Shown: piece after piece, positions 3,103 to 56,728 of the stretch
Numbering within the stretch: position 1 is the stretch's first letter
Layout of the letters: every line of letters starts with the position of its first letter
Origin: Candidatus Nomurabacteria bacterium
GTDB lineage: Bacteria; Patescibacteriota; Patescibacteriia; HK-STAS-PATE-3
Assembly: GCA_023898465.1 (NCBI GenBank)
Contig: CP060223.1
Location: 1,018,587-1,082,586, forward strand
Length of the DNA: 64,000 nt
Direction: 5' to 3'
Program-made: the position numbers and the translations under genes
The notes under the pieces: model-generated
Databases searched by the model: none
What the model was told of the DNA's origin: nothing
The model's input: the letters and a program-made list of their open reading frames with translations, nothing else

Positions 3103-4335
3103 ATGAGACTGTGCTACACTTCTCCTATGCCCCAGTATTACTTTATTCTTGGTAAAAACCCGAAGCTCTCTTTAGCAGAGCTAGACCAAGCCCTGCAGAC
3201 TCGTGCCATTACCAGCGAAGTGGTGGCTCGTGCTTCTGACTACTGTATTTTGGAGACCAAAGAAGAGTTAAATCTGGTGGAGTTATTGCAGCACTTGGGA
3301 GGTACACTGAAGGCAGGGCAAATACTTGAAGGGCTTTCTTCACGAGATGAAGTACAAAGTATCTGCGCAAATGTAGATTGGGCAGAGAAAAAACTACCGC
3401 TCACAAAACATCGGGCAGAATTTGGTATAAGCGTCTACGGGACAAAAAAGTCTGGACCCTTAAGTAAGCGCTATGGTCTAGGTTTAAAAAAAGCATTGCA
3501 GTCAATTGGACATTCTGTGCGGATGATTTTTGATCCAAGCGGCCAACTCAGCAGTGTTACCGTAGCAAAGAATGGATTACTGAGTAAGGGTTTTGAGCTT
3601 TGCGTGTTAGAAAGTGCCACTCAACATTGGCTTGGACTTAGTCAGGCAGTGCAATCATTCCGCAAGTTTAGTGAGCGGGATTATGGCCGACCTGACCGTG
3701 ATGCGCGCAATGGCATGCTTCCGCCAAAGTTGGCACTCATGATGCTTAATATTGCGGGCGCAAAAAGCGGAAGCGTCGTGCTCGATCCTTTTTGTGGATC
3801 AGGTACTGTACTGCAAGAAGCACTTTTGCTGGGATGCAAAAAAGTTTATGGTTCGGATATTAGCGAGAAGGCGGTAAAAGATTCGCAAAATAATGTACAG
3901 TGGCTTAGTACGCAGGAGAAGTCGATTGGCACTGTGCAGATACGTAAAGTTGACGCTCGTCAGCTGCGTCCTACCTATGTCGCAGAGTCGGTTGATGTGA
4001 TTGTGACCGAGCCAGACCTTGGTCCGCCGCGACCGGCGCGTAACGAGGAGCAAATAGAAGAACGACGACAAGAAGCCATTGCTTTGTATCGATCTTTCTT
4101 ATCATCAGCGACCAAGGTGTTGAAGGCAAACGGTCGGGTGGTTATGGCTTGGCCCGTTTGGTCTCTGCAGGATACTCGTTATCACTTGCATCCAAAGAAA
4201 ATACTACCAGACGGCTGGACACTACTTTGGCCCTATGGTGATCTAGTATCGCAGGATGGTGAAAAGACCTTGCTCTATGAGCGACCAGGTCAGTTTGTAG
4301 CTCGTGAGATTGTGATACTCTCCCCAAATAAATAG
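3103..4335 (+). CDS. Putative SAM-dependent methyltransferase (UPF0020/Trm11/RlmL-like amino-methyltransferase fold), substrate unknown
   Basis: Motif I VLDPFCGSGTVLQEA; acidic D/E ...SDISEKA; motif IV-like VTEPDLGPP. Confidence 0.6.
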   Translation: MRLCYTSPMPQYYFILGKNPKLSLAELDQALQTRAITSEVVARASDYCILETKEELNLVELLQHLGGTLKAGQILEGLSSRDEVQSICANVDWAEKKLPLTKHRAEFGISVYGTKKSGPLSKRYGLGLKKALQSIGHSVRMIFDPSGQLSSVTVAKNGLLSKGFELCVLESATQHWLGLSQAVQSFRKFSERDYGRPDRDARNGMLPPKLALMMLNIAGAKSGSVVLDPFCGSGTVLQEALLLGCKKVYGSDISEKAVKDSQNNVQWLSTQEKSIGTVQIRKVDARQLRPTYVAESVDVIVTEPDLGPPRPARNEEQIEERRQEAIALYRSFLSSATKVLKANGRVVMAWPVWSLQDTRYHLHPKKILPDGWTLLWPYGDLVSQDGEKTLLYERPGQFVAREIVILSPNK

Positions 4336-4405
4336 CCTTGACATTGATGTCGGCATTACTTATGTTGGCAGTGTTTGTTGCACCTTAAAGAGGAGGGAAG
4401 AGTCG

Positions 4406-4594
4406 ATGGGAGATTGTGAGGGTGAACACGAGGGCGTTAGGACTGGACTTACGGAAGTCTACTGGGATCCCAAATCAGGGAAGTTTCTATATAGAGGCCG
4501 TACGCGTCCGGGTGTGCCCAGTGAAAGGTCCATCAAGTCGAAGCTCGGGGAGAAGTCGAAATCTCGAAAGAAAAGGAGTGGCAAGAAGAAATGA
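4406..4594 (+). CDS. Small (62 aa) basic hypothetical protein with a K/R/S-rich tail; GC-rich standalone gene
   Basis: Own promoter TTGACA-17-TATGTT (4338-4366), RBS AGGAGGG 7 nt upstream, intrinsic terminator directly downstream. Confidence 0.45.
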   Translation: MGDCEGEHEGVRTGLTEVYWDPKSGKFLYRGRTRPGVPSERSIKSKLGEKSKSRKKRSGKKK

Positions 4595-4604
4595 GGCGGC
4601 GTAT

Positions 4605-4640
4605 GGCGACACATCAGGACGATGGTCGCCTTTTTCTTAT
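4605..4640 (+). terminator. Intrinsic terminator
   Basis: ggcgac-(14 nt loop)-gtcgcc followed by tttttctt. Confidence 0.6.
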
Positions 4641-4689
4641 AAAAAGCAAAAAGCTGAGATAGTGACTAGTTTCAAAAAATGAACGAAAA

Positions 4690-4975
4690 AGAGACTGACA
4701 CAGAGGCCAGTCTCTTTGGAATTCAATCAGATCGCGTTATCGAACACGAGTCCCCATCATTTGTTGACGGGGCCGCGGAATGACGCGGGGAGGTGGCGAG
4801 GGTCGAGTGGTGCGTCTGCTTTGGATGAGCAGGCGGGCCGCCATTCGTACAGCAAATCGTCCGTCAACACAAGGGCGAAGTCCGTATTTGAAATTCGCCC
4901 ACAGGGTTCTCCTGTTCGTGGCGATCATGCCAGTCCTTTCGTTGCAGTGTGGAAAGTGCATTCCCTCCACTAACA
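4690..4975 (-). other. Minus-strand transcription unit (promoter TTGCAG-16-TATACT at about 4985-5012; terminator hairpin agagactg..cagtctct+T5 at 4686-4720). Encodes either a 74-aa Arg-rich ORF or a ncRNA
   Basis: Promoter, internal RBS GGAGGG-5-ATG (MHFPHC...) and a rho-independent terminator are all on the minus strand. Neither translation looks like a known protein. Confidence 0.35.
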
Positions 4976-5030
4976 TAGCTAGTATAGCGCGTTCCTATAC
5001 GACTGCAAGTGGATAGCGTACAATGCACAT

Positions 5031-5717
5031 ATGTCAGAACGATTACAGAAATTTATTGCCCGTTCGAGTCAGTATTCGCGACGCCGAGCTGAGGAGCTCA
5101 TGAAAAGCGGTGTGGTAAAAGTAAACGGCCAGGTTATTCGCCAACTCGGCACCAGTGTAAATCCAGAAGAAGACGTGGTGGAGGTGCTTGGTAAGAGGGT
5201 GAATCCAGAAACGCGGATCCGCTACATAGTTGTACATAAGCCGCGCGGGTATGTGTGTACACGGGCGCGTCATGCAAAAGAAAAAACAGTCTACGACCTT
5301 GTGCCAAATAGTCGAGACCTGGTGATTGCTGGGCGCTTGGACAAAGAGTCAGAGGGTCTCGTACTACTCACCAATGATGGCGCATTAGTGCAGCAGCTGA
5401 CCCATCCTAGTTACCAGCATGAGAAAGAATACGAAGTAGTAACTGCGCAGCGAATCACTGATGCTCATATTGCCAAACTGCTTCGTGGAGTGCCGCTTAA
5501 GGAAGGTTTGGCAAAAGCGGATAAAGTACAACGAATAAGTGAGAAGAAAATAAGACTAGTACTTCATCAAGGTTGGAAACGGCAAATTCGTCGTATGTGT
5601 GAAGTGATTGGCTTAAGCGTATTGCGATTGAAGCGAATTCGCATGGGGAGTCTGAAGCTTGATACACTTGAACTTGGCGCATCCCGCGGTGTGAAAAGGG
5701 ATGACTTTTTAAGTTAG
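5031..5717 (+). CDS. Pseudouridine synthase, RsuA/RluB family, with N-terminal S4 RNA-binding domain
   Basis: S4 domain (RLQKFIARSSQYSRRRAEELMKSGVVKVNG), VVHKPRGYVCT, AGRLDKESEGLVLLTNDG catalytic-Asp motif. Confidence 0.85.
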   Translation: MSERLQKFIARSSQYSRRRAEELMKSGVVKVNGQVIRQLGTSVNPEEDVVEVLGKRVNPETRIRYIVVHKPRGYVCTRARHAKEKTVYDLVPNSRDLVIAGRLDKESEGLVLLTNDGALVQQLTHPSYQHEKEYEVVTAQRITDAHIAKLLRGVPLKEGLAKADKVQRISEKKIRLVLHQGWKRQIRRMCEVIGLSVLRLKRIRMGSLKLDTLELGASRGVKRDDFLS

Positions 5718-5812
5718 ATATTGTTGAAGAAAAAGCATTGTAACAGCTGCTTGTCTATTTTTTTGCTATGTGTTAAAAAAGGGAATGGATCTTTTCAACC
5801 TGGAGGTGAGTT

Positions 5813-6037
5813 ATGGGTTGTCATGAGTCTAGTAATGGCCCCGATGCACATGACTGTGCCGACTGGGAAAGTTGGGTGGAGTTTTTGCAGGGACCTAAGC
5901 CAACTTCTCCGCTGTTGGATGTACCTCGAGAATCGAGCGGATTTTCTGGAATCGATGAAGGTCTGAGACAGGATTTCTGGGCTAGCCTTTTGCGTTTTTC
6001 GAAGATCCTGAATGAAGAGAAGCCTGAGTCGAGCTAA
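5813..6037 (+). CDS. Hypothetical small acidic protein (74 aa), GC-rich
   Basis: RBS GGAGGTG 5 nt upstream; first gene of a two-gene unit closed by a terminator at 6340-6370. Confidence 0.4.
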   Translation: MGCHESSNGPDAHDCADWESWVEFLQGPKPTSPLLDVPRESSGFSGIDEGLRQDFWASLLRFSKILNEEKPESS

Positions 6038-6048
6038 GGAGGGACAGT

Positions 6049-6306
6049 ATGGGAACCGGAGAATGTACTGGTGGAGAACGCATCCGGACTGGTGAGTCCT
6101 GGGAGGAGCATCAGGAAGGCTATCGCTATCTCGAGATGCAAGCGCGCTTGGACGCTATGTCAGATGCTCTTGGTCTGCCCTTGGCTGGTTCGAGTCGTCG
6201 AATGGAAGTGGTGCCGCCTGCTCAGGTGCCGAGGTGGTTGCGACCTGACGCATCAATGCAGCGGCCGAAGTATGCACCTTGGTATCGCCAGTCGCATGAA
6301 TGGTGA
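6049..6306 (+). CDS. Hypothetical small protein (85 aa), GC-rich
   Basis: RBS AAGGAGGG 6 nt upstream; terminator follows. Confidence 0.4.
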   Translation: MGTGECTGGERIRTGESWEEHQEGYRYLEMQARLDAMSDALGLPLAGSSRRMEVVPPAQVPRWLRPDASMQRPKYAPWYRQSHEW

Positions 6307-6339
6307 GTCGGCATGCACGACATCAACATCCAATAGAGA

Positions 6340-6370
6340 GGTCGTCCTATCAAGGAACGACCTTTTTCTT
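6340..6370 (+). terminator. Intrinsic terminator
   Basis: ggtcgt-cctatcaaggaa-acgacc followed by tttttctt. Confidence 0.65.
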
Positions 6371-6439
6371 ATAATAGTTTTTTGAAAAAAAATTTAGTTT
6401 GGAATAGTATAATAAAAGAAAGCATTAAACAAATAGCAT

Positions 6440-7057
6440 ATGCAATCAAAAATACTCACCGCAACACTTTCTGTAGCTATTATCATAATGGCGGGTGTAA
6501 TTATCTATTTATTAGGAACAAATAAGGAGAGTCAGACCACGGCGACAACAAATTCTTCATTAACGAACACTAGTGTCTTGGTTGATACGGTGACCGAAAA
6601 GAATTGTTTGGCTGATGATTGTCTCTTGGTTGATAACCTGGAATACCCAGCAGCCAATCTTCCTTCATATGTAATCACCGCGCTTGGCAAAGCAATTGAT
6701 GATGAGTATAAAGCGCGAGCGACTTACGAAGCGGTAATTGATCAATTTGGTTCCACTCGACCCTTCTCCATGATCATCCGGGCTGAGGAGCAGCACATTA
6801 GCTCACTTAAAGCTATATATGATAAGTATGGAGTAGATATCCCGGTTGATCCGTATGAGGTCGACGCTCTCGACATCCCCGATACAATTGCGGAAGCGTG
6901 TCAACTTGGAGTAGAGGCGGAAATTGCAAATGCTGCGTTATATCGAGATGAGTTATTACCAGAGGTGAGCGCATACGCCGACATAATCTCAGTGTTTGAA
7001 AGCTTAATGAATGCCTCACAAGAGAAGCATCTTCCGGCATTTCAAAAGTGTAGTTGA
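6440..7057 (+). CDS. Membrane-anchored ferritin-like protein of the DUF2202 family
   Basis: N-terminal TM helix; DDEYKARATYEAVIDQFGSTRPFSMIIRAEEQHISSLKAIYDKYG...ALYRDELLPEV pattern typical of the DUF2202 ferritin-like fold. Confidence 0.65.
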   Translation: MQSKILTATLSVAIIIMAGVIIYLLGTNKESQTTATTNSSLTNTSVLVDTVTEKNCLADDCLLVDNLEYPAANLPSYVITALGKAIDDEYKARATYEAVIDQFGSTRPFSMIIRAEEQHISSLKAIYDKYGVDIPVDPYEVDALDIPDTIAEACQLGVEAEIANAALYRDELLPEVSAYADIISVFESLMNASQEKHLPAFQKCS

Positions 7058-7107
7058 GTAATGAGAAAAACCGCGCAGCCTGTGAGAAGCGTGCGCGGCT
7101 GGTCGAG

Positions 7108-7620
7108 TCATTCGGGGTAGAGGGCGAGCGATGAGCGGTCAACATCTGGCACGTCAGCTAGGCAGAGTGCAGGGGTGAGCGTGGGATCGCGAATGAGCAG
7201 GCTGATGTGAAGTAGATCCTCATCACCGGTACGTTTTGACCGGAAGATGATGGGGTCGCGATACCAAGGCTTGATGATGAGCGTCCATCCCTCTCGCATA
7301 TGACCTGGATTTGCAAAAGTGATTGACTGATCGTGCACAGACGGACTCCAAGGAAAGGAGCTCGTATGTTTCCCTGCTGCGGTTGTGAGTGTAACTCGCG
7401 AGCCAAGGAAGGCGCGATTACAGTGATAGACTTGAATCGAGTCAGGTTCGATGTCCTCGAGTTCGGGGTCAAAGACGGCGATCCGTGGATAAGGAGTCAC
7501 TTGGACTCGCTTCGGACCATAGACATGATCATAGACCCAGGTCACCGAAGCAGGGAATACGCCGATGAGAAGCAGTAGTGAGACGATCACAAGGGAAATC
7601 CAGCCAAAAGCCTTTCGCAC
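7108..7620 (-). CDS. Hypothetical membrane-anchored protein (GTG start)
   Basis: RBS AGGAGG 6 nt before GTG; N-terminal TM segment ISLVIVSLLLLIGVF. Confidence 0.5.
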   Translation of the reverse strand: MRKAFGWISLVIVSLLLLIGVFPASVTWVYDHVYGPKRVQVTPYPRIAVFDPELEDIEPDSIQVYHCNRAFLGSRVTLTTAAGKHTSSFPWSPSVHDQSITFANPGHMREGWTLIIKPWYRDPIIFRSKRTGDEDLLHISLLIRDPTLTPALCLADVPDVDRSSLALYPE

Positions 7621-7794
7621 TACGCACCTCCTGTGCAGGTTTTCCTAAAGAGCAATTGCTATAGAGCACAGCTTAACTGGATTTTGTATTTTCGCCAAGT
7701 CTAAAGTAGCACTTGCAAATTTTTAGCTCCCTGTGGTAAAGCAAAGAAGCTCTTTATCCCGTGAACGCAAAACATTCAAGTAAAGGAGGTTGCG

Positions 7795-8067
7795 GTGTCA
7801 CCGGAACAGCGGAATAGGAAGCGTTTGCGCAAGAGTTGCGAAAAGCAACTTCAACGGAACGGAACCATGCCTCCTGGTCCGTGGAGGTGGGTGCATGGCG
7901 TGCTCTATGATCGCAATGATCAGGAGTTGACTCGCGAGCGTCCAGAAGCCCTTGGTCTCGAGGGCCTCCCAAAGCCGCTCGAACGGTCAGGATCTCGTTT
8001 CCCGAATCGACCGAGGGAGTATGGGCGGGACGGTTCGTCCACTCAGCAGAGGCCAAGCTGGTGGTGA
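7795..8067 (+). CDS. Hypothetical small basic protein (90 aa), GTG start, GC-rich
   Basis: RBS AAAGGAGG 5 nt upstream of GTG; low-complexity basic sequence. Confidence 0.35.
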   Translation: MSPEQRNRKRLRKSCEKQLQRNGTMPPGPWRWVHGVLYDRNDQELTRERPEALGLEGLPKPLERSGSRFPNRPREYGRDGSSTQQRPSWW

Positions 8068-8127
8068 GATGTCTGCAGGTGAGTTGCAATATACTCACCT
8101 GCCTTTTTATTAGTAAAGCCGCGCAAC

Positions 8128-8349
8128 TCAGAGTGAGTGCGCGGCTGAAGCCGGACAAGAATCTTCTTCGCAGTCGGTTTCGTGGTTTCCGGTGGAAACA
8201 TCGGGCTTCTGACGAGTCACGACGAGTACGACGACGAGGAAAATGGACAGTGCGCAGAGAAAGCACACCATAAGTATGGTGTAGTCGGGGTCCGGCGCAG
8301 GCTGAGGCGGATCGACTAGTCCAAAGATAGGGTCAAGGTAAAAGAGCAT
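8128..8349 (-). CDS. Hypothetical small single-TM membrane protein (about 73 aa; internal Met start)
   Basis: RBS GGAGG 6 nt before internal ATG (MLFYLDPIF...); Pro-rich segment then a TM helix; candidate promoter TTGACC-17-TACCAT upstream. Confidence 0.35.
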   Translation of the reverse strand: MLFYLDPIFGLVDPPQPAPDPDYTILMVCFLCALSIFLVVVLVVTRQKPDVSTGNHETDCEEDSCPASAAHSL

Positions 8350-8453
8350 GACTACCTCCGAGTTTGCAGCCATTTGCATGGTAGTTAGTTTTTACCTTTA
8401 GGTCAATAAAAACCTGCGAGTATATTCTTGACAAAGGGTCATGAATTGCTAAG

Positions 8454-8663
8454 GTGGTTTTGTTTACTAGGCTCTTTTTAGGCGAGGTGCACATGGCTGA
8501 GAAAATGCCCAAATCAGTAAAGGCCAAGAACGCTCAGTTTGAGCAATGTCCGATCTGCCGACAGGTAGATATCCGACCACTTGTAGATCATCTCACCCCG
8601 GACGGTAAGATGACCTGTCCTGGACCGCGGCTTCAGGTATGTGACGGTGAATCAAGCAACTGA
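8454..8663 (+). CDS. Hypothetical small Cys-containing (CPxC ... CPGP..C) protein, probably starting at the internal Met (MAEKMPK...)
   Basis: Promoter-like TTGACA-16-TAAGGT upstream; Cys pattern suggests a zinc ribbon. Confidence 0.3.
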   Translation: MVLFTRLFLGEVHMAEKMPKSVKAKNAQFEQCPICRQVDIRPLVDHLTPDGKMTCPGPRLQVCDGESSN

Positions 8664-8675
8664 GGAGGTGTTACC

Positions 8676-8891
8676 GTGGCGGATGGTGAATCGACTGGCG
8701 GATCGATCGAGTACTCGATCGGCACGCCTGAAGGGTGGGAAGAGCTCAAGCGAGCTCAACGAGACCTTCGAGATGCGCAAGCGGGTTCGAGCGGCTGTTT
8801 TCTCCGGCCTCATTGGCCAAAGAGAGAGGTGGTCAGAGCACTGAAAGAGCATGGACTCTTGAAGTCCAAGACTCGTGAGCGACCGTCCTAG
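8676..8891 (+). CDS. Hypothetical small protein (71 aa), GTG start, GC-rich
   Basis: RBS GAGGAGG upstream of GTG; intrinsic terminator 8879-8908 (gcgacc..ggtcgc+T5) overlaps the stop. Confidence 0.45.
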   Translation: MADGESTGGSIEYSIGTPEGWEELKRAQRDLRDAQAGSSGCFLRPHWPKREVVRALKEHGLLKSKTRERPS

Positions 8892-8935
8892 GATGGTCGC
8901 TTTTTCTTTATTGCAAAAACGCCTCGCTAAGAGAG

Positions 8936-9454
8936 TTAGTATGGGATCGAATCAATCAAAGAGTAGTTAGCATTTACAAAATCTTTATAGCTTGACCACG
9001 GCCAGTCCTCAGGTTTATTTACCAACCCATCCCTCACTGGATTATAATGAATATAGTTCACGTGATGATTTAGATCTTGTTGGTCACGGATGATGTGGTC
9101 GTAAAATGATTTTTGCCAAATAAATTTCGTAGATAGCCGAGGATGATCATCCTCGGCTATGAGGTGTGGATATATAATATTAATACTCCTTGAAATGTTT
9201 CTTTTTAGGCAATGCATAAGATCAGAAATATTACTTTCATAACGAGGCCGTAACAAAAAATGTGCATGATCATGCATTACAACATACGCGTATAGATAAT
9301 AAGGTTGGATATTTTTTGTTATTTGGAGTCGGGAGATAACAATATTCGCAAGATGAGAATCTTTGAAGAAGGGAATTCTATTGTGAGTTACAATTGTGAC
9401 AAAATATATTCCATCCGGAATATAGATTCGTTTAAGCTTACTAATAAACAACAT
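8936..9454 (-). mobile_element. IS200/IS605-family Y1 (REP-associated tyrosine transposase-like) transposase gene, very AT-rich
   Basis: HxH motif (MHDHAHFLL) and catalytic Tyr region (FYDHIIRDQQD...YIHYNPVRDGLVN...DWPWSSY) typical of the Y1_Tnp family; GC of about 32% against about 58% flanks. Confidence 0.8.
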
Positions 9455-9532
9455 GGCGTCTCCTTAAAGATCGCCACATTTCCAGCCTATACTGCTGTTC
9501 TGGAAAAGTAAAGCTGCGCGATACTGAGTCCC

Positions 9533-10582
9533 TTACTGACTGATATGGAAATGCACAACGTCTCCATCTTGGATGATGTACTCCTTGCCTTCCATGCGCA
9601 TGAGGCCTTTTGCTTTTGCGTTAGCTTCGCTCCCAGCCTCAAGTAAGGTTTTCCAGTTAATCACTTCAGCTCGAATGAAAGCCTTAATAAAGTCGGTATG
9701 AATCACTCCAGCAGCTTGCGGGGCGGGACTTCCTTGCTTCACAGTCCAAGCGCGGGTTTCCTTCGGACCCGTGGTCAACATGGTGATGAGGTTGAGCAAT
9801 TCGTAGGAAGCGCGAATGAGTCGATCAAGTCCACTCGATTTCCATCCCAATTCTTGCAGCATGGCTTTTGCGTCTTCGCTGGGGAGCTCGGCTAGTTCAG
9901 CTTCCATTTTTACGCATACTTTTAGCGGAGTGGTGGCCTCACTTACCTCATCTTCGCTCACGTTATAGAGAGTGAGGATAGGCTTCATAGTAAGTAGATT
10001 GAGGTAGCGAATCGCCTCCTTTTCCTCTTTACTGAGATCGACAGTATTGGCTGGCTTCCCTTCATTCAGAGCTGCATTTATTCGCTCTAATATACCCACC
10101 TGCAACTTGGCTTCTTTGTCACCTGATCGAGCTTTACCGTTTTGTGTATCTAAAGCTTTTGTCACCTGATCTAAATCAGCCATAGCCAGTTCATAGAGGA
10201 TAGTTTGTTCATCCTCATCTGGGTTGACTCGACCGGATACATGATGGACATTCGCATCTTCAAATCCACGTACGACGTGACAGATTGCATCAACCTCTCG
10301 GATGTTTGAGAGAAATTTATTACCTAAGCCTTCACCTTGCGAAGCACCTTTGACCAAACCGGCAATGTCGACAAACTCAATTGTCGTAGGAATAATTTCC
10401 TGCGATGCTGAGAGTTTTGCTAAAGGCTCCAATCGATCATCAGGCACGGCAACGACGCCCACATTTGGGTCAATGGTAGCAAAAGGATAGTTAGAGGTAT
10501 CAACCTGCTTTTTGGTTAGCGCTTGGAAAAGGGTTGATTTACCGACATTGGGTAGTCCGACAATTCCGACCTGCAGTGACAT
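9533..10582 (-). CDS. ychF: Ribosome-binding ATPase YchF (Obg-family GTPase)
   Basis: GIVGLPNVGKSTLFQALT G1 motif, TGS C-terminal domain. Confidence 0.95.
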   Translation of the reverse strand: MSLQVGIVGLPNVGKSTLFQALTKKQVDTSNYPFATIDPNVGVVAVPDDRLEPLAKLSASQEIIPTTIEFVDIAGLVKGASQGEGLGNKFLSNIREVDAICHVVRGFEDANVHHVSGRVNPDEDEQTILYELAMADLDQVTKALDTQNGKARSGDKEAKLQVGILERINAALNEGKPANTVDLSKEEKEAIRYLNLLTMKPILTLYNVSEDEVSEATTPLKVCVKMEAELAELPSEDAKAMLQELGWKSSGLDRLIRASYELLNLITMLTTGPKETRAWTVKQGSPAPQAAGVIHTDFIKAFIRAEVINWKTLLEAGSEANAKAKGLMRMEGKEYIIQDGDVVHFHISQ

Positions 10583-10600
10583 AGAGGAGTGGGTTACAAA

Positions 10601-10933
10601 TTATGAAACATTTTTCTTCCACTCGCGCTGCTGATTTTTTTCTTCTTTCGCGCGCAGTGCTTGAGGAAGGTCTATAGAAAGCTTATTCGCAATATCAGTC
10701 AGGTAAATTATGCAGTCGGCTATTTCCTCAGCTGCTTCTGACCGCTTGGTGTCATCGGCCATTGCTAGGCCTTCTGACTTTCGAATCGCCCTAGCGAGCT
10801 CGCCGATTTCTTCCATTAGGAGCACGAGCTTATCTTTGACTGACTCATCATCAAAACCCCGTTCAGTGAGTACTCGTTGAAAATACTCTTGGAGCTCGCT
10901 TAAGCTGGGATTATGTGATAGTTGCATAGACAT
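10601..10933 (-). CDS. MazG-like nucleotide pyrophosphohydrolase domain protein
   Basis: EEIGELARAI...EEIADCIIYLTDIA (EExxE / metal-binding helices of the MazG family). Confidence 0.7.
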   Translation of the reverse strand: MSMQLSHNPSLSELQEYFQRVLTERGFDDESVKDKLVLLMEEIGELARAIRKSEGLAMADDTKRSEAAEEIADCIIYLTDIANKLSIDLPQALRAKEEKNQQREWKKNVS

Positions 10934-10937
10934 AGCG

Positions 10938-11675
10938 CTACCCTTTTCCCTTACGCCAACGCACCGCGTTCAGTAGCGGCCCATAGAGATCATCACGTTT
11001 GTTGATATGCAAATTGCGAATCTCCTTTGGACTAGGATTTCGTTTTTGGAATTGCACGAAAGGGAGCTTGGTGATAAGAGCGAGTGGTGTTTGTTCAGTA
11101 CCCTCACCCATAACGGCAACTGCTGCAGCGGCTAAGGCATCACTGTGATTTGCCTGCGATAAGTACATGGGATGACCAAATAAATCCTTAGTCCCGCGAT
11201 AATCTTTCAGTGCCAAGAAGCCAGAGTGGGCAATCGCAACTCCAGTGGTTCCCCAGCGCAAAGGTCGAGTAGTGCTGTCACTGATGATAACGCCGATCTG
11301 CTGACGCCGGAAACGCTTTTGCAAATAGGTTCGAATCGCATTAGCACTTTTTTTAGGATGCTTTGGCAGCATCACGTGCGCGCCCGCCGCATTCGAGTGA
11401 TCAACTCCCGCTGCAGGGAATAAGTGCGAGTATTTAATTGTCAGCATGGTGTGATATTTACTGCGCTGTCGTGGTAAATACCATTCAGCCTCTCTTTGAA
11501 TCAAGGTGTCTTTATCTGTCCTACGGTCTATATGACCCTCACACAGTGCTACGATTTTTGACGTTACGACGAGGATGCTTTTTTCCGGAATGTTTTTTAC
11601 TGCGCGATCAAGAATACCGGTCAGTGGGCCGGATTCCTCAGTTATACGTGGAGTGCGGATCGCTTTGATATTCAT
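10938..11675 (-). CDS. F420-0:gamma-glutamyl ligase (CofE)-like family protein
   Basis: SILVVTSKIVALCEG ... AGVDHSNA ... matches the CofE/F420_ligase fold. Confidence 0.65.
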   Translation of the reverse strand: MNIKAIRTPRITEESGPLTGILDRAVKNIPEKSILVVTSKIVALCEGHIDRRTDKDTLIQREAEWYLPRQRSKYHTMLTIKYSHLFPAAGVDHSNAAGAHVMLPKHPKKSANAIRTYLQKRFRRQQIGVIISDSTTRPLRWGTTGVAIAHSGFLALKDYRGTKDLFGHPMYLSQANHSDALAAAAVAVMGEGTEQTPLALITKLPFVQFQKRNPSPKEIRNLHINKRDDLYGPLLNAVRWRKGKG

Positions 11676-12358
11676 CGAGGGTATTGTATACCGTATCGCA
11701 GGAAAAGTTCGCTGTCTAGCTCTTTTTGGCTGATAAGCTTCAGCTGAGGCAGGCGCTTTGGTTGGAACATGCTTCCTTCTAGCAAATGAAGACTATTACC
11801 TTTTTCACTGCCTAGCAACTTTGGCGTGAAAGTGAGGAATAGTTCATCGAGTAATTTTGCCTGTACAAAACTCTGTACTAATTGCGGGCCGCCCTCAACT
11901 AAGATGTGATGATAGCCATCCCGATAGAGTTTGGCGCTTAACTTTTTTGCAGAAAAGTTTTTATCCTTCACTTGCTGTATCGCCGTATAGGCAGGTGCAG
12001 ATCTGCGAAGGCCTTGCATAATCTGCGCTTGCCTACTGACTACGATATAGAGGAGCGGTCGGTGTTTGCCAAGCTGCTTTCGTCGCTTTTGAAAGTTCGG
12101 GTCAGTCAGGCGCTGCAGAGTGGGTGAGTTTAGTGCAGTATTGCGGCCATGAATAAGCACGTCAGCATGGGCCCGCAATTCAAGCAGCGTTGCAAAATCA
12201 CGCTGGCTGCCGAGAGGCCAGTATGCTCGGGGATGTTTCCTTGATTGCACTACACCGTCTACTGATTGAACAAAGTTCGTGTAGAAGTAAGGGCGCTTAG
12301 ACTTCAGCGGAAGCTTCAGCCGTCGGTAAAGTGCTTGGTTTGCTCGGTGTTTTGTCAT
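11672..12358 (-). CDS. RibD C-terminal domain (5-amino-6-(5-phosphoribosylamino)uracil reductase-like / DHFR-like) protein
   Basis: NFVQSVDGVV...HHILVEGGPQLVQSFVQAKLLDELFLTFTPKLLG. Confidence 0.7.
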   Translation of the reverse strand: MTKHRANQALYRRLKLPLKSKRPYFYTNFVQSVDGVVQSRKHPRAYWPLGSQRDFATLLELRAHADVLIHGRNTALNSPTLQRLTDPNFQKRRKQLGKHRPLLYIVVSRQAQIMQGLRRSAPAYTAIQQVKDKNFSAKKLSAKLYRDGYHHILVEGGPQLVQSFVQAKLLDELFLTFTPKLLGSEKGNSLHLLEGSMFQPKRLPQLKLISQKELDSELFLRYGIQYPR

Positions 12359-12998
12359 TGCGTAGCCAACGAACGCCTAGGTAAACAAATGGCGTTTCAA
12401 TAATAGACATAGCGCATTTGAGCAACCAGTATGGCAAGATGAGACTGAAGAGGAAGCTGGCGTTATTTCCCAAACCTTTATCAAATGCGTAGAAGGCCAA
12501 GGTCATGAATACAACTGTATCGACGAGTTGTGCCACGATATTAGAAAGGTTATTGCGTAACCACAAACCTTTGTCCTGCATTTTTTTTCGTAGGCGGGCA
12601 AAGACAGCTACATCAAGGAATTCAGCCAGAGCAAAAGCGATCAGACTAGCGGCGGAGATGCGAATTGATTGTACAAAGATAGTATCATAAGCTGCTTCGC
12701 TCCCAGAAAAACGAGTGGAGGGTGGCAAGCTGGTCGCCAGTGCAGTGAAGAGAAAAAGCAAGAAAATCATGAGTAGCCCAGCGCGGATAACGCTACGAGC
12801 TCGTTCGCTTCCGTACACCTCAACAATGACGTCGTTAATGGTGAAGAGGATTGGAATCACAAAAATTGCTACGCTGGCATTCAGGGTGTAGGAGCCGAGG
12901 TGCAGCAATGGAAAAGTCTTGGCGCCCAGCAGCTCAGAGCACATGATGCAGAAGATGTAGATGGCGACCAGTAGGTCAAATTTGCGGATGGAAAACAT
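12297..12998 (-). CDS. yhhQ: Queuosine-precursor transporter YhhQ/Vut family membrane protein
   Basis: Multi-TM; FTINDVIVEVYG motif of the DUF165/YhhQ family. Confidence 0.8.
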   Translation of the reverse strand: MFSIRKFDLLVAIYIFCIMCSELLGAKTFPLLHLGSYTLNASVAIFVIPILFTINDVIVEVYGSERARSVIRAGLLMIFLLFLFTALATSLPPSTRFSGSEAAYDTIFVQSIRISAASLIAFALAEFLDVAVFARLRKKMQDKGLWLRNNLSNIVAQLVDTVVFMTLAFYAFDKGLGNNASFLFSLILPYWLLKCAMSIIETPFVYLGVRWLRNDKTPSKPSTLPTAEASAEV

Positions 12999-13128
12999 CT
13001 CGCCAAGTTTATCAGTGAGCTCTCAGAAAAGCAAGTAATATTGACAAGCTGCAGTTGTGTTGTTAAATTGTCGTGTCGTTCATTAAGATTTCTTTTTTCC
13101 ACGTGCCCTGACTAGAGGAGGTAAGGCC

Positions 13129-13743
13129 GTGCATTGGAACTTTGGGCCCCGATTCGGCACCCCGGGGAAAACGTTTCAGAGGTATCAGGTGATTCTGACT
13201 GAAGAGCAGGAAGAGCGTCTGGCCGGTACCTGCTTCCGCCCTACTCACGCGGCATTGTCGGGACGGATCATGCGAGCTGGCTTTGCTTGTTTGCTTTTCT
13301 CTGAGGACTTGTGCGAACAGATCCTGGGAAAGATCGAGGAACAGATCCGGTTCTTGATTCCGGTACCGTGGCGTGGCTACACGTTTCGTCTTTCCGTGAG
13401 CAGTGTTGGGCCGATTGGTTGGACCTCAACCATTACCAAGGAGCACCTGCTCTGGCGCAGTTTGCAGCCGCGGTATATGGAGCTCTTTCAGATCAACAAG
13501 CATGCAAACGGGTATCGGGTACGACCGGCTTACCATGATCGTTTCCCGGCACCTCTGACGAGCGTGATCACCATGGCCACTACCATTCGCTGGAATCCGA
13601 TTGATGCGAGATGGAACGTGTATGTCGAGACGGTGTACCCGGGAGTTGACATTGGACCCCTGCGTGCTCCCAGTTGTAGCTCTCGGATGATCAGGGATGT
13701 GAAGTTTTGGGATTGGAATGCGCCCGGCCAGCCGCTTAGCTGA
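13129..13743 (+). CDS. Hypothetical protein (204 aa), GTG start, GC-rich
   Basis: Promoter TTGACA-17-TAAATT (about 13035-13063); RBS AGGAGG 7 nt before GTG; terminator 13762-13797. Confidence 0.5.
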   Translation: MHWNFGPRFGTPGKTFQRYQVILTEEQEERLAGTCFRPTHAALSGRIMRAGFACLLFSEDLCEQILGKIEEQIRFLIPVPWRGYTFRLSVSSVGPIGWTSTITKEHLLWRSLQPRYMELFQINKHANGYRVRPAYHDRFPAPLTSVITMATTIRWNPIDARWNVYVETVYPGVDIGPLRAPSCSSRMIRDVKFWDWNAPGQPLS

Positions 13744-13761
13744 GCGTGAAAGAATCGTAAC

Positions 13762-13797
13762 GAAGCCTTATCCTACTTGGATGAGGCTTCTTTCTCT
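13762..13797 (+). terminator. Intrinsic terminator
   Basis: gaagcct-(15 nt)-aggcttc followed by tttctct. Confidence 0.6.
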
Positions 13798-14302
13798 ATC
13801 TTAATATACGCCGAATTTTTGGTAGCGCCTCAAGCATATGCTTAAAAGCTATATTTTCAGGCGTATGATCAATCGGAATCCACTCATAGCCATCAACATC
13901 ATCAGATGGTTGAATGTTCTGATCAAGTAATTCGCAGTAGTAGTAGAGATTGAGTACTTTTGTTCCATCACTAACACTTGGATGCTGATAGGTATCAATG
14001 TAAGAGCCAAGGTAATCTCGAACCTCCACATCAACTTTGAGTTCCTCTTTGCACTCTCGCAGTATGCATGATTCGCCACTTTCACCGTTGTCGAGAAAAC
14101 CACCAGCAAAATCTAGACATCCTTTCCGTGGTTCACGAGCACGTCGGACGTAAAGCAGTTTTCCATTTTGATAAAAAATACCCACAGTGGCTGGAATGGG
14201 ATTATGAAACTGCATAGTATTGCATTGGCTGCAGCGGAGATGTTGTCCATCAAATTGTACGAGTCGTCCACCACAGTACATGCAAAATTGTCGTGTGCGC
14301 AT
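13796..14302 (-). CDS. NUDIX hydrolase with N-terminal zinc ribbon (NudC/NADH-pyrophosphatase-like)
   Basis: CMYCGG...CSQC zinc ribbon; NUDIX box GGFLDNGESGESCILRECKEELKV. Start is the internal Met (MRTRQF); the upstream part of the track ORF is probably non-coding. Confidence 0.8.
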   Translation of the reverse strand: MRTRQFCMYCGGRLVQFDGQHLRCSQCNTMQFHNPIPATVGIFYQNGKLLYVRRAREPRKGCLDFAGGFLDNGESGESCILRECKEELKVDVEVRDYLGSYIDTYQHPSVSDGTKVLNLYYYCELLDQNIQPSDDVDGYEWIPIDHTPENIAFKHMLEALPKIRRILR

Positions 14303-14424
14303 AGCCCTAGTGTACTGCGGAAATGGTTTTGCGAAAAGAGCAAGGATTGACAAAATTGCGATTTTGAGGTAATAAATGAAATAGATACAACACCATTGTC
14401 CTTTGACAGAAAAGGAGGCAGCCG

Positions 14425-14958
14425 ATGCGTAAATCGCTTGCTTTTTTGTTGTTTGTCTTGGCTCTCTGCCTGGCTCACTTGCCTGCTCGCGTTTACGCGG
14501 AAGGCTGCAACGGCCAGAAGTGGTGCGTCGAGACATCGGAGTTCGCTTTTCGATTGGGTGAATACCCGATCGAGATCGACCGCCTGCGTCACTTGGAAGA
14601 AAAGGGTGCGCCAGACATGGCGAGTACCATCCGGTACATTCTCCAGCATCCGAAAACCATCACGTATATCGGGTGGATTCGCCCGACTCCTGAGATGCAC
14701 TATCTCAGCCTACGGTGGAACGTCGGTCTCCAGCTCAAGAGCGGCGAAGTCATTTGGGCTCAGCAGTGGATCTACGAAGAGAATGGTCACATGGTTCAGA
14801 GTGATCCAGGAAACTTGCATTTCTCACCCATTTCTAGCGGTAGGAGTGGCGAGAACAATCAAGGAAAGTCCTACCTCGCTTTTGTGGTTTTCCCGGAGCG
14901 GAAGGCCGACGGAAAGGATTGGAAAGACAAGGAAGTCGCGGGATTGGTATTCGAGTAA
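14425..14958 (+). CDS. Secreted hypothetical protein (signal peptide), GC-rich
   Basis: Promoter TTGACA-17-TAATAA; RBS AAAGGAGG; signal peptide MRKSLAFLLFVLALCLAHLPARVYA. Confidence 0.5.
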   Translation: MRKSLAFLLFVLALCLAHLPARVYAEGCNGQKWCVETSEFAFRLGEYPIEIDRLRHLEEKGAPDMASTIRYILQHPKTITYIGWIRPTPEMHYLSLRWNVGLQLKSGEVIWAQQWIYEENGHMVQSDPGNLHFSPISSGRSGENNQGKSYLAFVVFPERKADGKDWKDKEVAGLVFE

Positions 14959-15045
14959 CCCCGGTTTCGTGGCGTCATCATGATAGACACATCGTGAGCC
15001 ACGGAAGAAACGCAGTCCGACGACTGCACAAGAAGGAGAGCGGAG

Positions 15046-15261
15046 ATGAAGAAGCTTTTGATCTCTCTGTCGGCGATTGCGCTCCTCGCCAGCCCGGCCG
15101 TGATCCCGAAGGTCGATGTGGCTGACAACGGAAGCGTCGAGATCAGTCAGAGCGGTGACGCTCAGGCCTGGAATCTCGTTCTCATCATGTGTAAGGAGTT
15201 GCACGTCGATGAGATGTGCGATCTCTACGACCACGGTGTGGACGAGGGCTGGTGGAACTAG
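15046..15261 (+). CDS. Small secreted acidic peptide (71-aa precursor, 2 Cys, ends GWWN)
   Basis: RBS AAGGAG; signal peptide MKKLLISLSAIALLASPAVIP; co-transcribed with 14425..14958; T-run terminator after the stop. Confidence 0.45.
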   Translation: MKKLLISLSAIALLASPAVIPKVDVADNGSVEISQSGDAQAWNLVLIMCKELHVDEMCDLYDHGVDEGWWN

Positions 15262-15298
15262 CCATCGACGGGCTACCGCGCCGTATTCTTCTCGCTTA

Positions 15299-16159
15299 CT
15301 AGCGAAGAGAGTGCGGCGCTTTTTCTTTTACTATAAACGCCTCTACCGTGCTCTGCAGCAACATTGCGACAGTTACAGGACCAACGCCACCAGGTACCGG
15401 ACTGCGCCAGGCAGCCACACCTTCAACACTCTCAGCATCAACATCTCCAGTCACGCTCCCATCAGGCATTTCGTTTATTCCTACGTCGATCAGTATGCTC
15501 TTGGGTTTAAGCATGTCACCCCGGAGGTATTTAGACTTCCCTGCAGCAATAATAACGACGTCGGCTTTTTTTACATCATCAACTTGCATTTCATCAGCTC
15601 GTTGCGCGCTCACTTGTAAGCCTACGCTTTCTAGTGCTTTACGCATGGGTAGGAAAAAGGTGTCAGAGTAAGCTAAAACCAGCGCCTCTTTGTTATTCAT
15701 TTGCTCATCGGTTTTTTGTAGAAGCGCCATAATGCTGCGAATCAGGCTGGGCGCTTGACCGCTCTGTCCAGTCAGGTAGCGCTCTACATTCATTGGATGA
15801 AAGCCATCCACATCTTTACGCCAGTCTATGGCCTGGGTGATACGATCTTCATTCAAGTGCGAAGGCAAAGGCAGCTGCACCACAATGCCGTGCACTTTTG
15901 CGTCACTATTCAACTCTTCGAGCTTTCGTAGTACATCAGCCTCATTTGCATCAGCTGGAAATCGATGGAGCGCAAAATGAATGCCGAGTTTTTCGCAGGC
16001 TCGCTCTTTTACTTTCACATATACCTCAGAAGCCGGATCATTGCCAACTAGGATAATAGCTAAACCAGGCGTGCCTGAGATTTTAGCAAGTTGCGCGGCA
16101 GTACGATCGGTAATTTCTTTGGCCAGTGCTCGGCCATCAATGAGTTGGGTTGTGAACAT
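15299..16159 (-). CDS. folD: Bifunctional methylene-THF dehydrogenase/methenyl-THF cyclohydrolase
   Basis: Full-length FolD similarity (DGRALAKEI..., VQLPLP, GGVGP). Confidence 0.95.
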   Translation of the reverse strand: MFTTQLIDGRALAKEITDRTAAQLAKISGTPGLAIILVGNDPASEVYVKVKERACEKLGIHFALHRFPADANEADVLRKLEELNSDAKVHGIVVQLPLPSHLNEDRITQAIDWRKDVDGFHPMNVERYLTGQSGQAPSLIRSIMALLQKTDEQMNNKEALVLAYSDTFFLPMRKALESVGLQVSAQRADEMQVDDVKKADVVIIAAGKSKYLRGDMLKPKSILIDVGINEMPDGSVTGDVDAESVEGVAAWRSPVPGGVGPVTVAMLLQSTVEAFIVKEKAPHSLR

Positions 16160-16161
16160 GA

Positions 16162-17391: not shown

Positions 17392-18232
17392 CGGACTTGA
17401 GTGTAGAATGCTCTGGGCGGACTGGCAAGGGATAGCGTTTCTGGCTAATACGAATGAGCATCCAGAAACCGAGCAGGATAAAAAGTGCGCTCACAATGAG
17501 CGGCAGACGTATACCGATAATATGTGGCGTTGCATCAAAGCGAAAGAGCTCGGCTGCAAAACGGCCAACTCCATAGAGTAGGAAAAAGAGGGCGGTAACA
17601 ACCCCAATCGCTGTGTCATTTTGACGTTTTCGTTCCAGCCAAATAAAGCCAAGTAGTAGCACTACACCGAAAAGATCAATGAGCGATTCATAAAGGAAGA
17701 CCGGATGAAAGTAGCTGGCGTTGATATAGCTTTCTGGTCGAAGTGATTCAGCAATTGGAATGCCCCAAGGCAAGCTTGTTGGTCGTCCAAATAACTCTTG
17801 ATTAAAATAGTTTCCCCAACGCCCAATACTTAAGCCCAGGAGTACGCCAGGCGCCAGGAGGTCCGTCAGGCGAAGGAGGGGAAGTTGCAAGCGCCTTGCT
17901 CCATAATAGAGCACTAGTAATCCGACAAGTATGCCACCATGGATAGCCAGGCCGCCCTGCCAAATTTGGAATATGTCACCTGGGTGTTGCCAATAGTACA
18001 CGGGTTCGTTCAGCACGTGATAGAGCCGCGCGCCAATGAAGCCGAGAAAGGCAGTGAGCAGGAGGAGGTCGGTCAGTCGGCCGAGCGGGATATTTCGCTT
18101 ACGAGAAAGGAGGTAGGTAATAAAATACGCGCTCAGCATGCCCAGACTTAAGCAGAGTCCGTACCAGCTAATAGAGATATTTCCTAGCGTAAAAGCGACG
18201 GCATTGGGAAGTGTTTCGTGGAGGAAATCCAT
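17348..18232 (-). CDS. lgt: Prolipoprotein diacylglyceryl transferase
   Basis: Multi-TM Lgt pattern (ISWYGLC..., [25 protein letters not shown]). Confidence 0.9.
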
Positions 18233-18408: not shown

Positions 18409-18415
18409 CGGCCCA

Positions 18416-36559: not shown

Positions 36560-36570
36560 ATAGCACAAAT

Positions 36571-56680: not shown

Positions 56681-56728
56681 ATCCGCCCAGGATCAATTCC
56701 TGGGTTACGAGGTACAATATTGACATCG

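Follow-up and report, generated by a model that had tools for sequence, protein, structure and literature searches.

Organization of the locus

The window analyzed here is a 64-kb stretch of the genome of a Candidatus Nomurabacteria bacterium (contig CP060223.1), and the subject is a group of small gene cassettes interspersed with its housekeeping operons (the core). Region 4336–15300 holds nine cassettes with 12 small open reading frames (ORFs) of 56–204 amino acids, led by Shine–Dalgarno (SD) motifs; the whole window contains ∼17 SD-led units. Genes were called by a simple score combining codon usage, SD motif, and start codon, and the list was then corrected by hand. The cassettes with their predicted promoters and terminators are as follows (GC3, GC content at third codon positions; UTR, untranslated region).

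Cassette 1, 4338–4640, plus strand: TTGACA (4338–4343), 17-nt spacer, TATGTT (4361–4366); SD GAGGAGGG at 4390–4397; orf62 at 4406–4594 (62 amino acids, pI 10.2, Lys-rich tail); terminator hairpin at 4605–4630 followed by TTTTTCTTAT.
Cassette 2, 4680–5008, minus strand, divergent from rluB: TTGCAG (5008–5003), 16-nt spacer, TATACT (4986–4981); 5′UTR of ∼50 nt; orf63 at 4737–4928 (63 amino acids, pI 12.0, Arg-rich); terminator hairpin at 4690–4716 with a T-tail.
Cassette 3, 5802–6372, plus strand: SD GGAGG (5802–5806) and orf74 at 5813–6037; SD AAGGAGGG (6036–6043) and orf85 at 6049–6306; terminator at 6339–6363 followed by TTTTCTTATA.
Cassette 4, 7060–7632, minus strand: SD AGGAGG (7632–7627); GTG start; orf170 at 7108–7620; terminator at 7071–7102 with a T-tail.
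Cassette 5, 7783–8111, plus strand: SD AAGGAGG (7783–7789); GTG start; orf90 at 7795–8067 (90 amino acids, pI 10.8, core motif PPGPWRWVHGVLYDR, C-terminal SWW); terminator at 8075–8102 followed by CTTTTTATTA.
Cassette 6, 8128–8406, minus strand: TTGACC, 17-nt spacer, TACCAT (8406–8378); SD GGAGG; orf73 at 8128–8349; no T-tailed terminator found.
Cassette 7, 8428–8911, plus strand: TTGACA (8428), 16-nt spacer, TAAGGT; orf56 at 8493–8663; SD GAGGAGG, GTG start, and orf71a at 8676–8891; terminator at 8877–8902 followed by TTTTTCTTTAT.
Cassette 8, 13041–13799, plus strand: TTGACA, 17-nt spacer, TAAATT (13041–13069, TG-extended); SD AGAGGAGG at 13114–13121; GTG start; orf204 at 13129–13743; terminator at 13762–13790 followed by TTTCTCTAT.
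Cassette 9, 14347–15331, plus strand: −35 element TTGACA (14347–14352) with a weak −10 (TAATAA); SD AAAGGAGG and orf177 at 14425–14958; SD AAGGAG and orf71b at 15046–15261 (GC3 0.79); terminator at 15278–15321 followed by TTTTTCTTTT, overlapping the 3′ end of folD.

The genes around them, with leaderless starts predicted from upstream hexamers, are the following.

3103–4335, plus strand: UPF0020-type RNA methyltransferase (core); leaderless, TAGAAT 6 nt before ATG.
5031–5717, plus strand: RluB-type pseudouridine synthase, rluB (core); leaderless, TACAAT 6 nt before ATG.
8936–9454, minus strand: IS200/Y1-type transposase (RAYT-like), 34% GC, a low-GC outlier outside the cassettes.
9533–12998, minus strand: ychF, then a MazG-like/F420-ligase-like/RibD_C/Vut_1 operon (core); SD-less, leaderless signals at 11675 and 12998.
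13796–14302, minus strand: NUDIX hydrolase (core); own leaderless promoter, TACACT 6 nt before ATG.
15299–17391, minus strand: SHMT–FolD operon (core); leaderless at 17391, TTGCCA ... TACACT, 8 nt before ATG.

The orf62 and orf63 genes are convergent and lie between the methyltransferase gene and rluB. Cassette 3 follows rluB, has no clear promoter itself, and may be co-transcribed with, or read through from, that gene. The NUDIX gene is separated from the Vut_1 operon by cassette 8 and from folD by cassette 9. The products of orf73 and orf56 have four cysteines each, those of orf56 in two CxxC-like pairs. By inspection, orf73 encodes one transmembrane segment, orf170 an N-terminal membrane anchor, and orf177 and orf71b signal peptides.

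Two of these genes, orf63 and orf90, were missing from the original prediction, which had been made from the sequence alone. Public gene calls are also uneven. Both orf74 and orf85 are called by public pipelines, and orf62, orf56, and orf71a as defined here are absent from the protein collection. For orf204, NCBI annotates the C-terminal 88 amino acids only (USN53507.1), and other pipelines give the full 204 amino acids from the SD-preceded GTG. Small SD-led genes with GTG starts seem to be under-called in this genome.

Start and end signals of the two gene classes

An AGGAGG or GGAGG motif lies 5–9 nt ahead of the start codon in most of the small ORFs. At a distance of 4–11 nt upstream, a strong SD motif is found for 10 of the 12 small ORFs in 4336–15300, and the motif is weaker in orf63 (AAAGGA) and orf56 (GAGG). 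The combination of GGAGG, a start codon, and an ORF of at least 50 amino acids occurs 26 times, compared with nine times for the reverse-complement control motif (∼3-fold). GTG serves as the start codon of orf170, orf90, orf71a, orf204, and the gene for ProRS (described below). Downstream, a hairpin (−15 to −31 kcal/mol) with a TTTTTCTT(T)AT-type tail marks 14 of 17 cassette ends but only seven of 31 core unit ends, most of the latter being weak (p = 1.5e-4). The cassettes show the arrangement that defines an intrinsic terminator, namely a GC-rich hairpin just past the stop codon with a T-tract directly after it. The original prediction of AGGAGG-type ribosome-binding sites, GTG starts, and hairpin-plus-T-tract ends is therefore borne out. 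Its near-consensus σ70 promoters hold for about half of the units and not for every one. The −35 element is a perfect TTGACA at 4338, 8428, 13041, and 14347 as well as ahead of 25514 and 63613, and orf73 is preceded by TTGACC-17-TACCAT. The total number of promoter-like matches (29) does not clearly exceed that in shuffled sequences (21.8 ± 4.1).

The core genes begin differently. In 17 of 30 core genes that are first in their unit, a TAnnnT hexamer ends 5–9 nt before the ATG, often with a TTGnnn box ∼17 nt further upstream. Such a hexamer precedes only 6.5% of all ATGs (p = 3e-13) and none of the 17 cassettes has one. A TANNNT motif ∼10 nt ahead of the start is the signature of leaderless (TA-led) genes (Zheng et al. 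2011, PMC3160421), and the unit-first core genes bear it. The position of the box thus suggests that these genes are leaderless. Their starts are all ATG, whereas five SD-led genes use GTG. Core genes inside operons are SD-less and adjoin or overlap the gene before them, an arrangement suggestive of translational coupling. This opposition between a leaderless, SD-less core and SD-led, terminator-insulated island genes is sharper than any contrast drawn in the original prediction.

Base composition

The original prediction described the region as a compositional mosaic, with ten blocks of 57–63% GC among core genes of 45–48% GC. The window averages 48.8% GC, and the highest 400-nt tile does not exceed 58.5%. 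The blocks measured as follows.

4336–5030: 50.4% GC
5721–6375: 50.2% GC
7100–8910: 52.3% GC
13030–13800: 52.9% GC
14340–15300: 53.2% GC
24620–25880: 55.4% GC
30940–31320: 57.7% GC
44960–45690: 55.4% GC
57470–59100: 55.2% GC
60504–63613: 56.6% GC

The range is therefore 50.2–57.7%, and the earlier figures were 5–7 points too high. The five blocks within 4336–15300 deviate from the window mean by ∼1 standard deviation or less when compared with size-matched windows. They reach only 50–53% GC because the AT-rich promoter and terminator of each are included; their ORFs have 49–59% GC. For the core, the earlier values were approximately right (RNase J 46%, TrpS 47%, YchF 47%, EF-P 50%).

Gene by gene the mosaic is genuine, although it had been overstated at the level of blocks, where the contrast is weak. 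Genes with a strong SD motif (n = 20) have a median GC content of 55.8% and a GC3 of 57%, compared with 47.7% and 45% for SD-less genes (n = 42; Mann–Whitney p ∼2e-6). When divided at 52% GC, 15 SD-led genes lie at or above this value and five below it, as opposed to three and 39 SD-less genes (Fisher p = 1e-7). The seven SD-led genes with 200 or more amino acids all have a GC3 of at least 0.55, whereas the 28 long SD-less genes top out at 0.53. GC content at second codon positions (GC2) is also higher in the SD-led class (0.46 versus 0.38, p = 0.001). Both codon usage and GC3 differ between the classes, and the uniformity that would have spoken against a mosaic was not found. The cassettes thus display the atypical base composition and codon usage by which horizontal islands are recognized.

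Conservation of gene order in related genomes

Syntenic relatives were obtained by exact-protein look-ups of RluB homologues (L082, GCA_964637345.1; L086, GCA_043800725.1; and L087, a JGI contig), and three short contigs (L084, L088, and L089) were added. These relatives are distant (57–63% RluB identity), and the comparison covers one 64-kb window of the genome. The best matches of the RluB-type protein are 52–63% identical and belong to Kerfeldbacteria-like and unclassified Patescibacteria, with none closer among ∼15 billion proteins. The genome carries the Nomurabacteria label at NCBI, but its nearest relatives are Kerfeldbacteria-like. Another 80 GTDB loci around rluB were too distant for synteny and gave no information on presence or absence.

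The backbone EFP–S18–SSB–S6–MTase–RluB ... YchF ... NUDIX–FolD–SHMT–LGT is conserved in L082, L086, and L087. The methyltransferase gene is conserved in L082, L084, L086, L087, and L089, and the gene order of 9533–12998 in L086. The NUDIX and FolD genes abut or overlap in L082, L086, and L087, and the Vut_1–NUDIX gap is 30 nt in L086. In the window, cassettes 8 and 9 (three ORFs) interrupt this Vut_1–NUDIX–FolD run. Because the core genes are adjacent in the relatives, insertion in the lineage of the window is the simplest reading. The corresponding block of L082 has counterparts of 12 of the 18 remaining features but of only one of the 12 cassette ORFs (Fisher p = 0.002).

Accessory status, as originally predicted, appears to hold for nine of the 12 ORFs, which are absent from the matching loci by lack of homologues, but not for orf63, orf90, and orf170. 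The latter are found at matching positions in relatives and are therefore genes of the clade as opposed to accessories of one strain. A strong SD motif is retained in the orthologues of orf90 and orf170, and a weaker purine-rich motif is present in those of orf63. Moreover, the rluB–ychF gap of L082 contains an unrelated Cys-rich gene of ∼128 codons (4310–4830, minus strand) with six CxxCxGxG repeats resembling a DnaJ-type zinc finger. It is built like the cassettes, with a TTGACT-17-TAGTAT promoter, a GAGGAGGG SD motif, and a TTTTTCTTTT-type terminator upstream, and was missed by public gene calling. The retention of the SD motif in orthologues and this similarly built L082 cassette indicate a clade-native cassette design with a content that turns over.

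An independent short-read contig (SRR12358676, 20 kb) reproduces the first 14.5 kb of the window in the same interleaved gene order. Variation at the strain level amounts to one amino acid difference only.

Coding status of the small ORFs

None of the 12 cassette ORFs matches Pfam or NCBIfam, and PHROGs gave one marginal match, for orf71a (E = 0.008). In line with the original prediction of no recognizable families, ten ORFs were scanned without a Pfam match, and the same applied to orf63 and orf90. For orf62 there was no match in Pfam, PHROG, or NCBIfam and no homologue in six syntenic relatives, and orf74 and orf85 likewise have neither a family match nor a homologue in the relatives. A tblastn search of 11 pooled ORFs against phage and plasmid collections found no match, nor did IMG/VR for three ORFs. 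The earlier notion that the mini-genes form a family does not stand, as BLASTP gives no alignment between members (none at E ≤100 for orf85/orf71a and orf62/orf85). A paralogous family with an N-terminal “MG..C” motif was rejected, because the sole signal of an all-against-all comparison (E = 0.005) needed composition correction to be switched off. Single-sequence AlphaFold2 (AF2) models were unusable, with predicted local distance difference test (pLDDT) scores of 44 for orf177 and 32 for orf204.

Conservation provides firmer ground for three genes. The window and L084 are strongly conserved at the nucleotide level across 4690–5015. A structured noncoding RNA was considered for this segment and rejected: there is no Rfam match (E ≤1), and the substitutions are codon-periodic in one minus-strand frame. 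Compared with L084 and L082, orf63 differs mostly at third positions, with six to seven synonymous changes in the first 19 codons. The third-position substitutions and the missing Rfam match identify 4690–5015 as orf63 together with its promoter and 5′UTR. Homologues of orf63 lie upstream of rluB in L082, L084, L087, and L089 (five genomes including the window); it has no PDB or Pfam relative.

The 5′UTR of orf63 (4929–4980, minus strand) is conserved with L084 (∼1319–1370). In an alignment read by eye, it can form a hairpin (GUGGA...UCCAC in the window, GCGG...CCGC in L084) with an apparent single compensatory change from U–A to C–G and a GGAGGG stretch inside. The hairpin could be a translational control element.

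In both L084 and L089, a homologue of orf90 with an AAGGAGG-type SD motif is located downstream of rluB. Between the window and L084, 23 codon changes in orf90 are synonymous and 20 non-synonymous, 10 codons are identical, and the PPGPWRWVHGVLYDR core is invariant. A search of 5.8e9 protein clusters with orf90 returned only the protein itself and that of L084. The homologue of orf170 in L087 (39.5% identity over 124 amino acids, E = 3e-20) lies between rluB and ychF in the same orientation and is preceded by GAGAGGAGG. Judged from this conservation, orf63, orf90, and orf170 are certainly real genes.

For the remaining nine small ORFs, none of which has a homologue in any syntenic relative, coding status rests on their signals and on the codon signature that they share with the undoubted enzymes of the class. 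The original claim of independently expressed mini-genes in place of random ORFs holds insofar as the cassettes are real, separately signaled units; the exception is the orf74–orf85 pair, which has no evident promoter.

Members of the class elsewhere in the window

Genes of the same class also occur outside region 4336–15300.

19495–20325 (unit 19459–20341), minus strand: PNP/MTAP-family phosphorylase; SD AGGAGG, GC3 0.57, strong predicted terminator at 19459–19489.
24678–25403 (region 24664–25834), plus strand: orf241; SD motif, signal peptide by inspection, predicted terminator after the gene.
25514–25834, plus strand: orf106; SD motif.
31013–31309, minus strand: orf98; 60% GC, weak SD motif, strong predicted terminator (−25.8 kcal/mol).
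45203–45586 (unit 45190–45645), plus strand: orf127; SD GGAGG, predicted terminator followed by TTTCTTTAA.
57524–58645 (unit 57514–58700), plus strand: FabH-like KAS III; SD AAGGAGGG, GC3 0.61, predicted terminator.
60504–61844, minus strand: DAO-family oxidoreductase; SD AGGAG.
61865–63613, minus strand: ProRS; GTG start, SD GGGAGG.

The ProRS and DAO-family oxidoreductase genes form an operon (60450–63628, minus strand) with a GC3 of 0.57–0.62 and a terminator after the oxidoreductase gene. The C terminus of orf241 gave weak, below-cutoff matches of the FlgD-Ig and Por_Secre_tail type.

The gene for a DUF212 (divergent PAP2) protein at 52926–53384 fits neither gene class cleanly. It is full-length (152 amino acids, 55% GC, GC3 0.60) and lies within a GC-rich stretch, with no evident SD motif or leaderless signal.

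Codon usage and its origin

Within the SD-led class, the relative synonymous codon usage (RSCU) of the small orphan ORFs correlates with that of the large enzymes at r = 0.76. Either subset correlates less well with the core (0.36–0.42), whereas core subsets correlate with the remaining core at 0.83. The cassettes prefer the G-ending codons CAG, AAG, GAG, CCG, and TCG and avoid A-ending codons, TTA, and ATA (fraction of A at third positions, A3 = 0.15). A set of ribosomal-protein, EF-P, and trigger-factor genes instead prefers CAA, GAA, CCA, ACT, GGT, and CGC (A3 = 0.29), and this opposed preference makes selection for high expression an unlikely cause. The RSCU of the cassettes is nearer to the core of L082 (r = 0.51–0.57) than to the window’s own core; the GC content of the relatives spans 43–59%.

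The three conserved genes orf63, orf90, and orf170 have a GC3 of 0.55–0.59 in the window, compared with 0.45 for the core. The GC3 of their orthologues also tends to equal or exceed that of the local core (0.70–0.82 versus 0.67 in L089, 0.61–0.68 versus 0.63 in L084, and 0.73 versus ∼0.70 in L087).

The best match of ProRS (53% identity) lies in a 66%-GC contig (L085) whose appearance is not that of the candidate phyla radiation (CPR). The next named matches, from Thermaerobacter, Oscillospiraceae, and Gloeobacter, are 44–45% identical, and the best relatives are not of the ABY1/Kerfeldbacteria type; core genes match Patescibacteria instead. These matches, together with the L082-like codon usage, suggest an origin by transfer. 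For the lineage-specific units, recent acquisition is most likely the cause of the higher GC3, and an intrinsic or recombination-linked bias may also contribute. In L085 itself (9000–12500), the ProRS gene and its upstream neighbor form a patch of lower GC (57–61%, compared with 65–73% around it) near a type IV secretion system coupling protein, a resolvase, and an rve integrase, and this ProRS may itself be a mobile or transferred copy.

Other features of the window

A second Y1/IS200-type transposase gene lies at 56786–57265. It is paralogous to that at 8936–9454 (37% identity), and both are low-GC outliers (34–39%). Around the second gene only (56683–57299) there are three copies, two identical and one at 81%, of a 26-nt palindrome CCGCCCAAGCTCAATGCTTGGGCTAC resembling repetitive extragenic palindromic (REP) elements, an arrangement of the REP/RAYT type.

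Segment 21117–24568 contains a 23S rRNA gene (3087 nt, ∼160 nt more than the 2925-position model) and a 5S gene. As no 16S gene accompanies them in 64 kb, the rRNA operon is split or unlinked; the 23S gene may carry an insertion. The window has four tRNAs. A tRNA-Leu gene (18323–18475 region) adjoins lgt (∼17438–18232, minus strand) and is followed by a 27-nt inverted repeat. In L082, the same tRNA-Leu gene is followed by a low-GC (30–42%) element at 10065–14255 that begins with a serine recombinase, is absent from the window, and looks like an integrated mobile element.

Two adjoining low-GC genes at 35528–38625 (43% and 40%) encode proteins with a common hydrophobic, type IV pilin-like N terminus (51% identity over 71 amino acids) and share a 92-nt repeat (83% identity, 35660–35751 and 36697–36788). 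These two genes look like tandem paralogues that encode surface or pilin-like proteins. Three further tandem paralogues at 47140–49023 (184, 210, and 209 amino acids; 28–32% identity, E = 1e-14 to 1e-22) adjoin an AMP-binding-enzyme gene (45693–47096) and a gene for a 694-amino acid membrane protein; they are putative acyltransferase-like proteins.

Discussion

In our judgment the small genes are probably clade-native, independently expressed accessory cassettes set between leaderless, SD-less core operons, and most of the cassettes would be lineage-specific gains. This reading builds on signals, composition, conservation, and absence at syntenic sites, all of which were directly observed; the transcript ends, expression, protein functions, and donor in the following scheme are deduced from sequence. 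In the core operons (∼47% GC), a −10 box 5–9 nt before the ATG would give rise to leaderless mRNAs, downstream genes would be translated by coupling, and terminators would be rare. Each cassette would have its own σ70-type promoter (clear in about half), a 5′UTR of 30–60 nt, an AGGAGG-type SD motif, and one or two small ORFs with ATG or GTG starts. A strong hairpin with a TTTTTCTT-type T-tract would end the transcript and shield neighboring operons from read-through. By virtue of their own promoter, SD motif, and terminator, the cassettes would be transcribed, translated, and terminated independently of their neighbors. The basic, Cys-bearing, membrane-anchored, or secreted products may act in nucleic acid binding, in the cell envelope, or in host contact. 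Most cassettes were presumably gained in the lineage at operon junctions, one of them splitting the NUDIX–FolD pair. Their GC3-rich usage would most likely stem from transfer or recombination with GC-richer genomes, namely related CPR bacteria for the small genes and other donors for the ProRS-like enzymes. The two modes of initiation might allow the accessory set to be regulated separately.

Several points weigh against this reading. Because the vertically inherited orf63, orf90, and orf170 are also raised in GC3, recent transfer cannot explain the elevation in these genes. The cassettes have neither mobility genes nor tRNA targets at their borders, nor are there flanking repeats or target-site duplications, and the nearest transposase is the low-GC Y1-type gene, which is unconnected to any cassette. 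For none of the orphan ORFs was a donor homologue identified, the deep cluster search having covered orf90 only. The GC3 of SD-flagged genes is not elevated at other SD-poor CPR loci. Nine small ORFs are without support from conservation, and the shortest may include mis-called ones. The 16S rRNA 3′ end, where a CCUCC anti-SD would be expected, lies outside the window, which holds no 16S gene, and the promoters, leaderless starts, and terminators are sequence-based predictions throughout.

Some of these points lend weight to a purely vertical account, in which all cassette genes are native and their GC3 is intrinsic, whether by GC-biased conversion, by selection on leadered mRNAs, or by an R/G/P-rich composition combined with weak codon selection. 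The syntenic orf63, orf90, and orf170, shared with relatives at 57–63% RluB identity and class-typical in GC3 here, agree with it, as do the GC3 of the orthologues at or above that of the local core, the raised GC2 (0.46 versus 0.38, p = 0.001), and a promoter, SD, and terminator style that is common to the clade and free of mobility signatures. It is nevertheless unlikely, though to be taken seriously, since the core flanks of two cassettes (three ORFs) abut in one to three relatives, in which these cassettes are clearly absent, nine ORFs lack a homologue in every syntenic relative, ProRS has the same codon signature but non-CPR best matches, and the GC3 excess does not recur at the other SD-poor CPR loci. 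We think it very unlikely that many of the small ORFs are not genes and that the islands are spacer, decayed pseudogenes, or noncoding RNAs. Nine of the 12 ORFs have no homologue in the collections and relatives tested, orf62, orf74, and orf71a have low per-codon coding scores, the AF2 models of orf177 and orf204 are unstructured, and the nucleotide conservation of 4690–5015 with L084 initially looked RNA-like. Yet the SD motifs are correctly spaced (10 of 12 strong) and the GGAGG–start–ORF combination is ∼3-fold over its control, terminators directly follow stop codons, three ORFs are conserved as proteins, the changes in 4690–5015 fall mainly on third positions with no Rfam match, and the codon signature is that of the large real enzymes of the class (r = 0.76).

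Two further explanations concern the GC-rich codons and the assembly. Translational selection for very high expression, with the same origin of the cassettes, would agree with the near-consensus expression signals and with the GC3 of ribosomal-protein and EF-P genes (0.49–0.56, above the core median), but the genes for ribosomal proteins, EF-P, and trigger factor show codon preferences contrary to those of the cassettes, which leaves this explanation very little credit. An assembly chimera or contamination as the source of the GC-rich pieces is hardly credible. The source is indeed a metagenome-assembled genome; however, the independent contig (SRR12358676) has the same interleaved order, the islands are 0.3–3 kb long with core genes on both sides, the cassette 9 terminator extends into the 3′ end of folD, and relatives hold cassettes of like design in the same slots.

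Beyond the favored reading of clade-native accessory cassettes, the clade might run two parallel expression systems, one for the ancestral, leaderless housekeeping genes and one for SD-dependent, terminator-insulated small-protein cassettes at operon junctions, whose fast-turnover pool keeps its own GC3-rich usage even when vertically inherited; we consider this stronger claim quite doubtful. If true, it would mean either an active process, such as frequent recombination and GC-biased conversion across the cassette pool, or a translational partition that switches cassettes on and off as a block. Should the split between the gene classes extend genome-wide, the promoter–start distance and the presence of an SD motif alone would suffice to tell the ancestral genes of this CPR group from its lineage-specific ones. 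Such a rule would aid gene calling, highlight the secreted, membrane, and basic small proteins likeliest to act in host contact, and offer a natural case for the separate regulation of leaderless and SD-dependent translation in a minimal cell.

Comparison with known systems

Genomes of the GeneMarkS-2 “group C” (e.g. Mycobacterium and Deinococcus) mix leaderless and SD-led genes. A searchable-literature survey returned no description of a leaderless core combined with SD-led cassettes for CPR/Patescibacteria. The window resembles the mixed TA-led/SD-led genomes (Zheng et al. 2011, PMC3160421) in that TAnnnT lies ∼10 nt before unit-first starts beside SD-led genes. It differs from mixed genomes in that the SD-led genes are not operon-internal; they stand alone between terminators, are small and mostly orphan, and have a separate codon usage. 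The operon-internal core genes, in turn, are SD-less.

Horizontally acquired genomic islets are marked by atypical GC content and codon usage, which is the classical picture of amelioration. The cassettes share with them the atypical GC3 and codon usage, an apparently patchy syntenic presence, the insertion between or within conserved operons, and the mostly orphan proteins. Unlike such islets, they are only 0.3–1 kb in size, lack an integrase, tRNA target, or flanking repeats, carry uniform clade-native signals, and include three old vertical members.

CPR genomes contain families of small membrane or secreted hypothetical proteins. The cassette proteins are similarly unassignable, often membrane-anchored or secreted, and encoded in a reduced, symbiont-type genome, but their spread is far narrower, with orf63 in five genomes, orf90 in three, orf170 in two, and the rest singletons. 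With the REP/BIME (bacterial interspersed mosaic element) and RAYT (REP-associated tyrosine transposase) systems, the window has in common GC-rich hairpins at the 3′ ends of genes and two Y1-type transposase genes. A REP origin of the cassette hairpins was rejected, since their sequences all differ and each is followed by a T-tract, as in terminators. Mixtures of leaderless and SD-led genes, small atypical islands, and CPR orphan proteins are each already known, and no component is new in kind; what is particular to the window is their combination.

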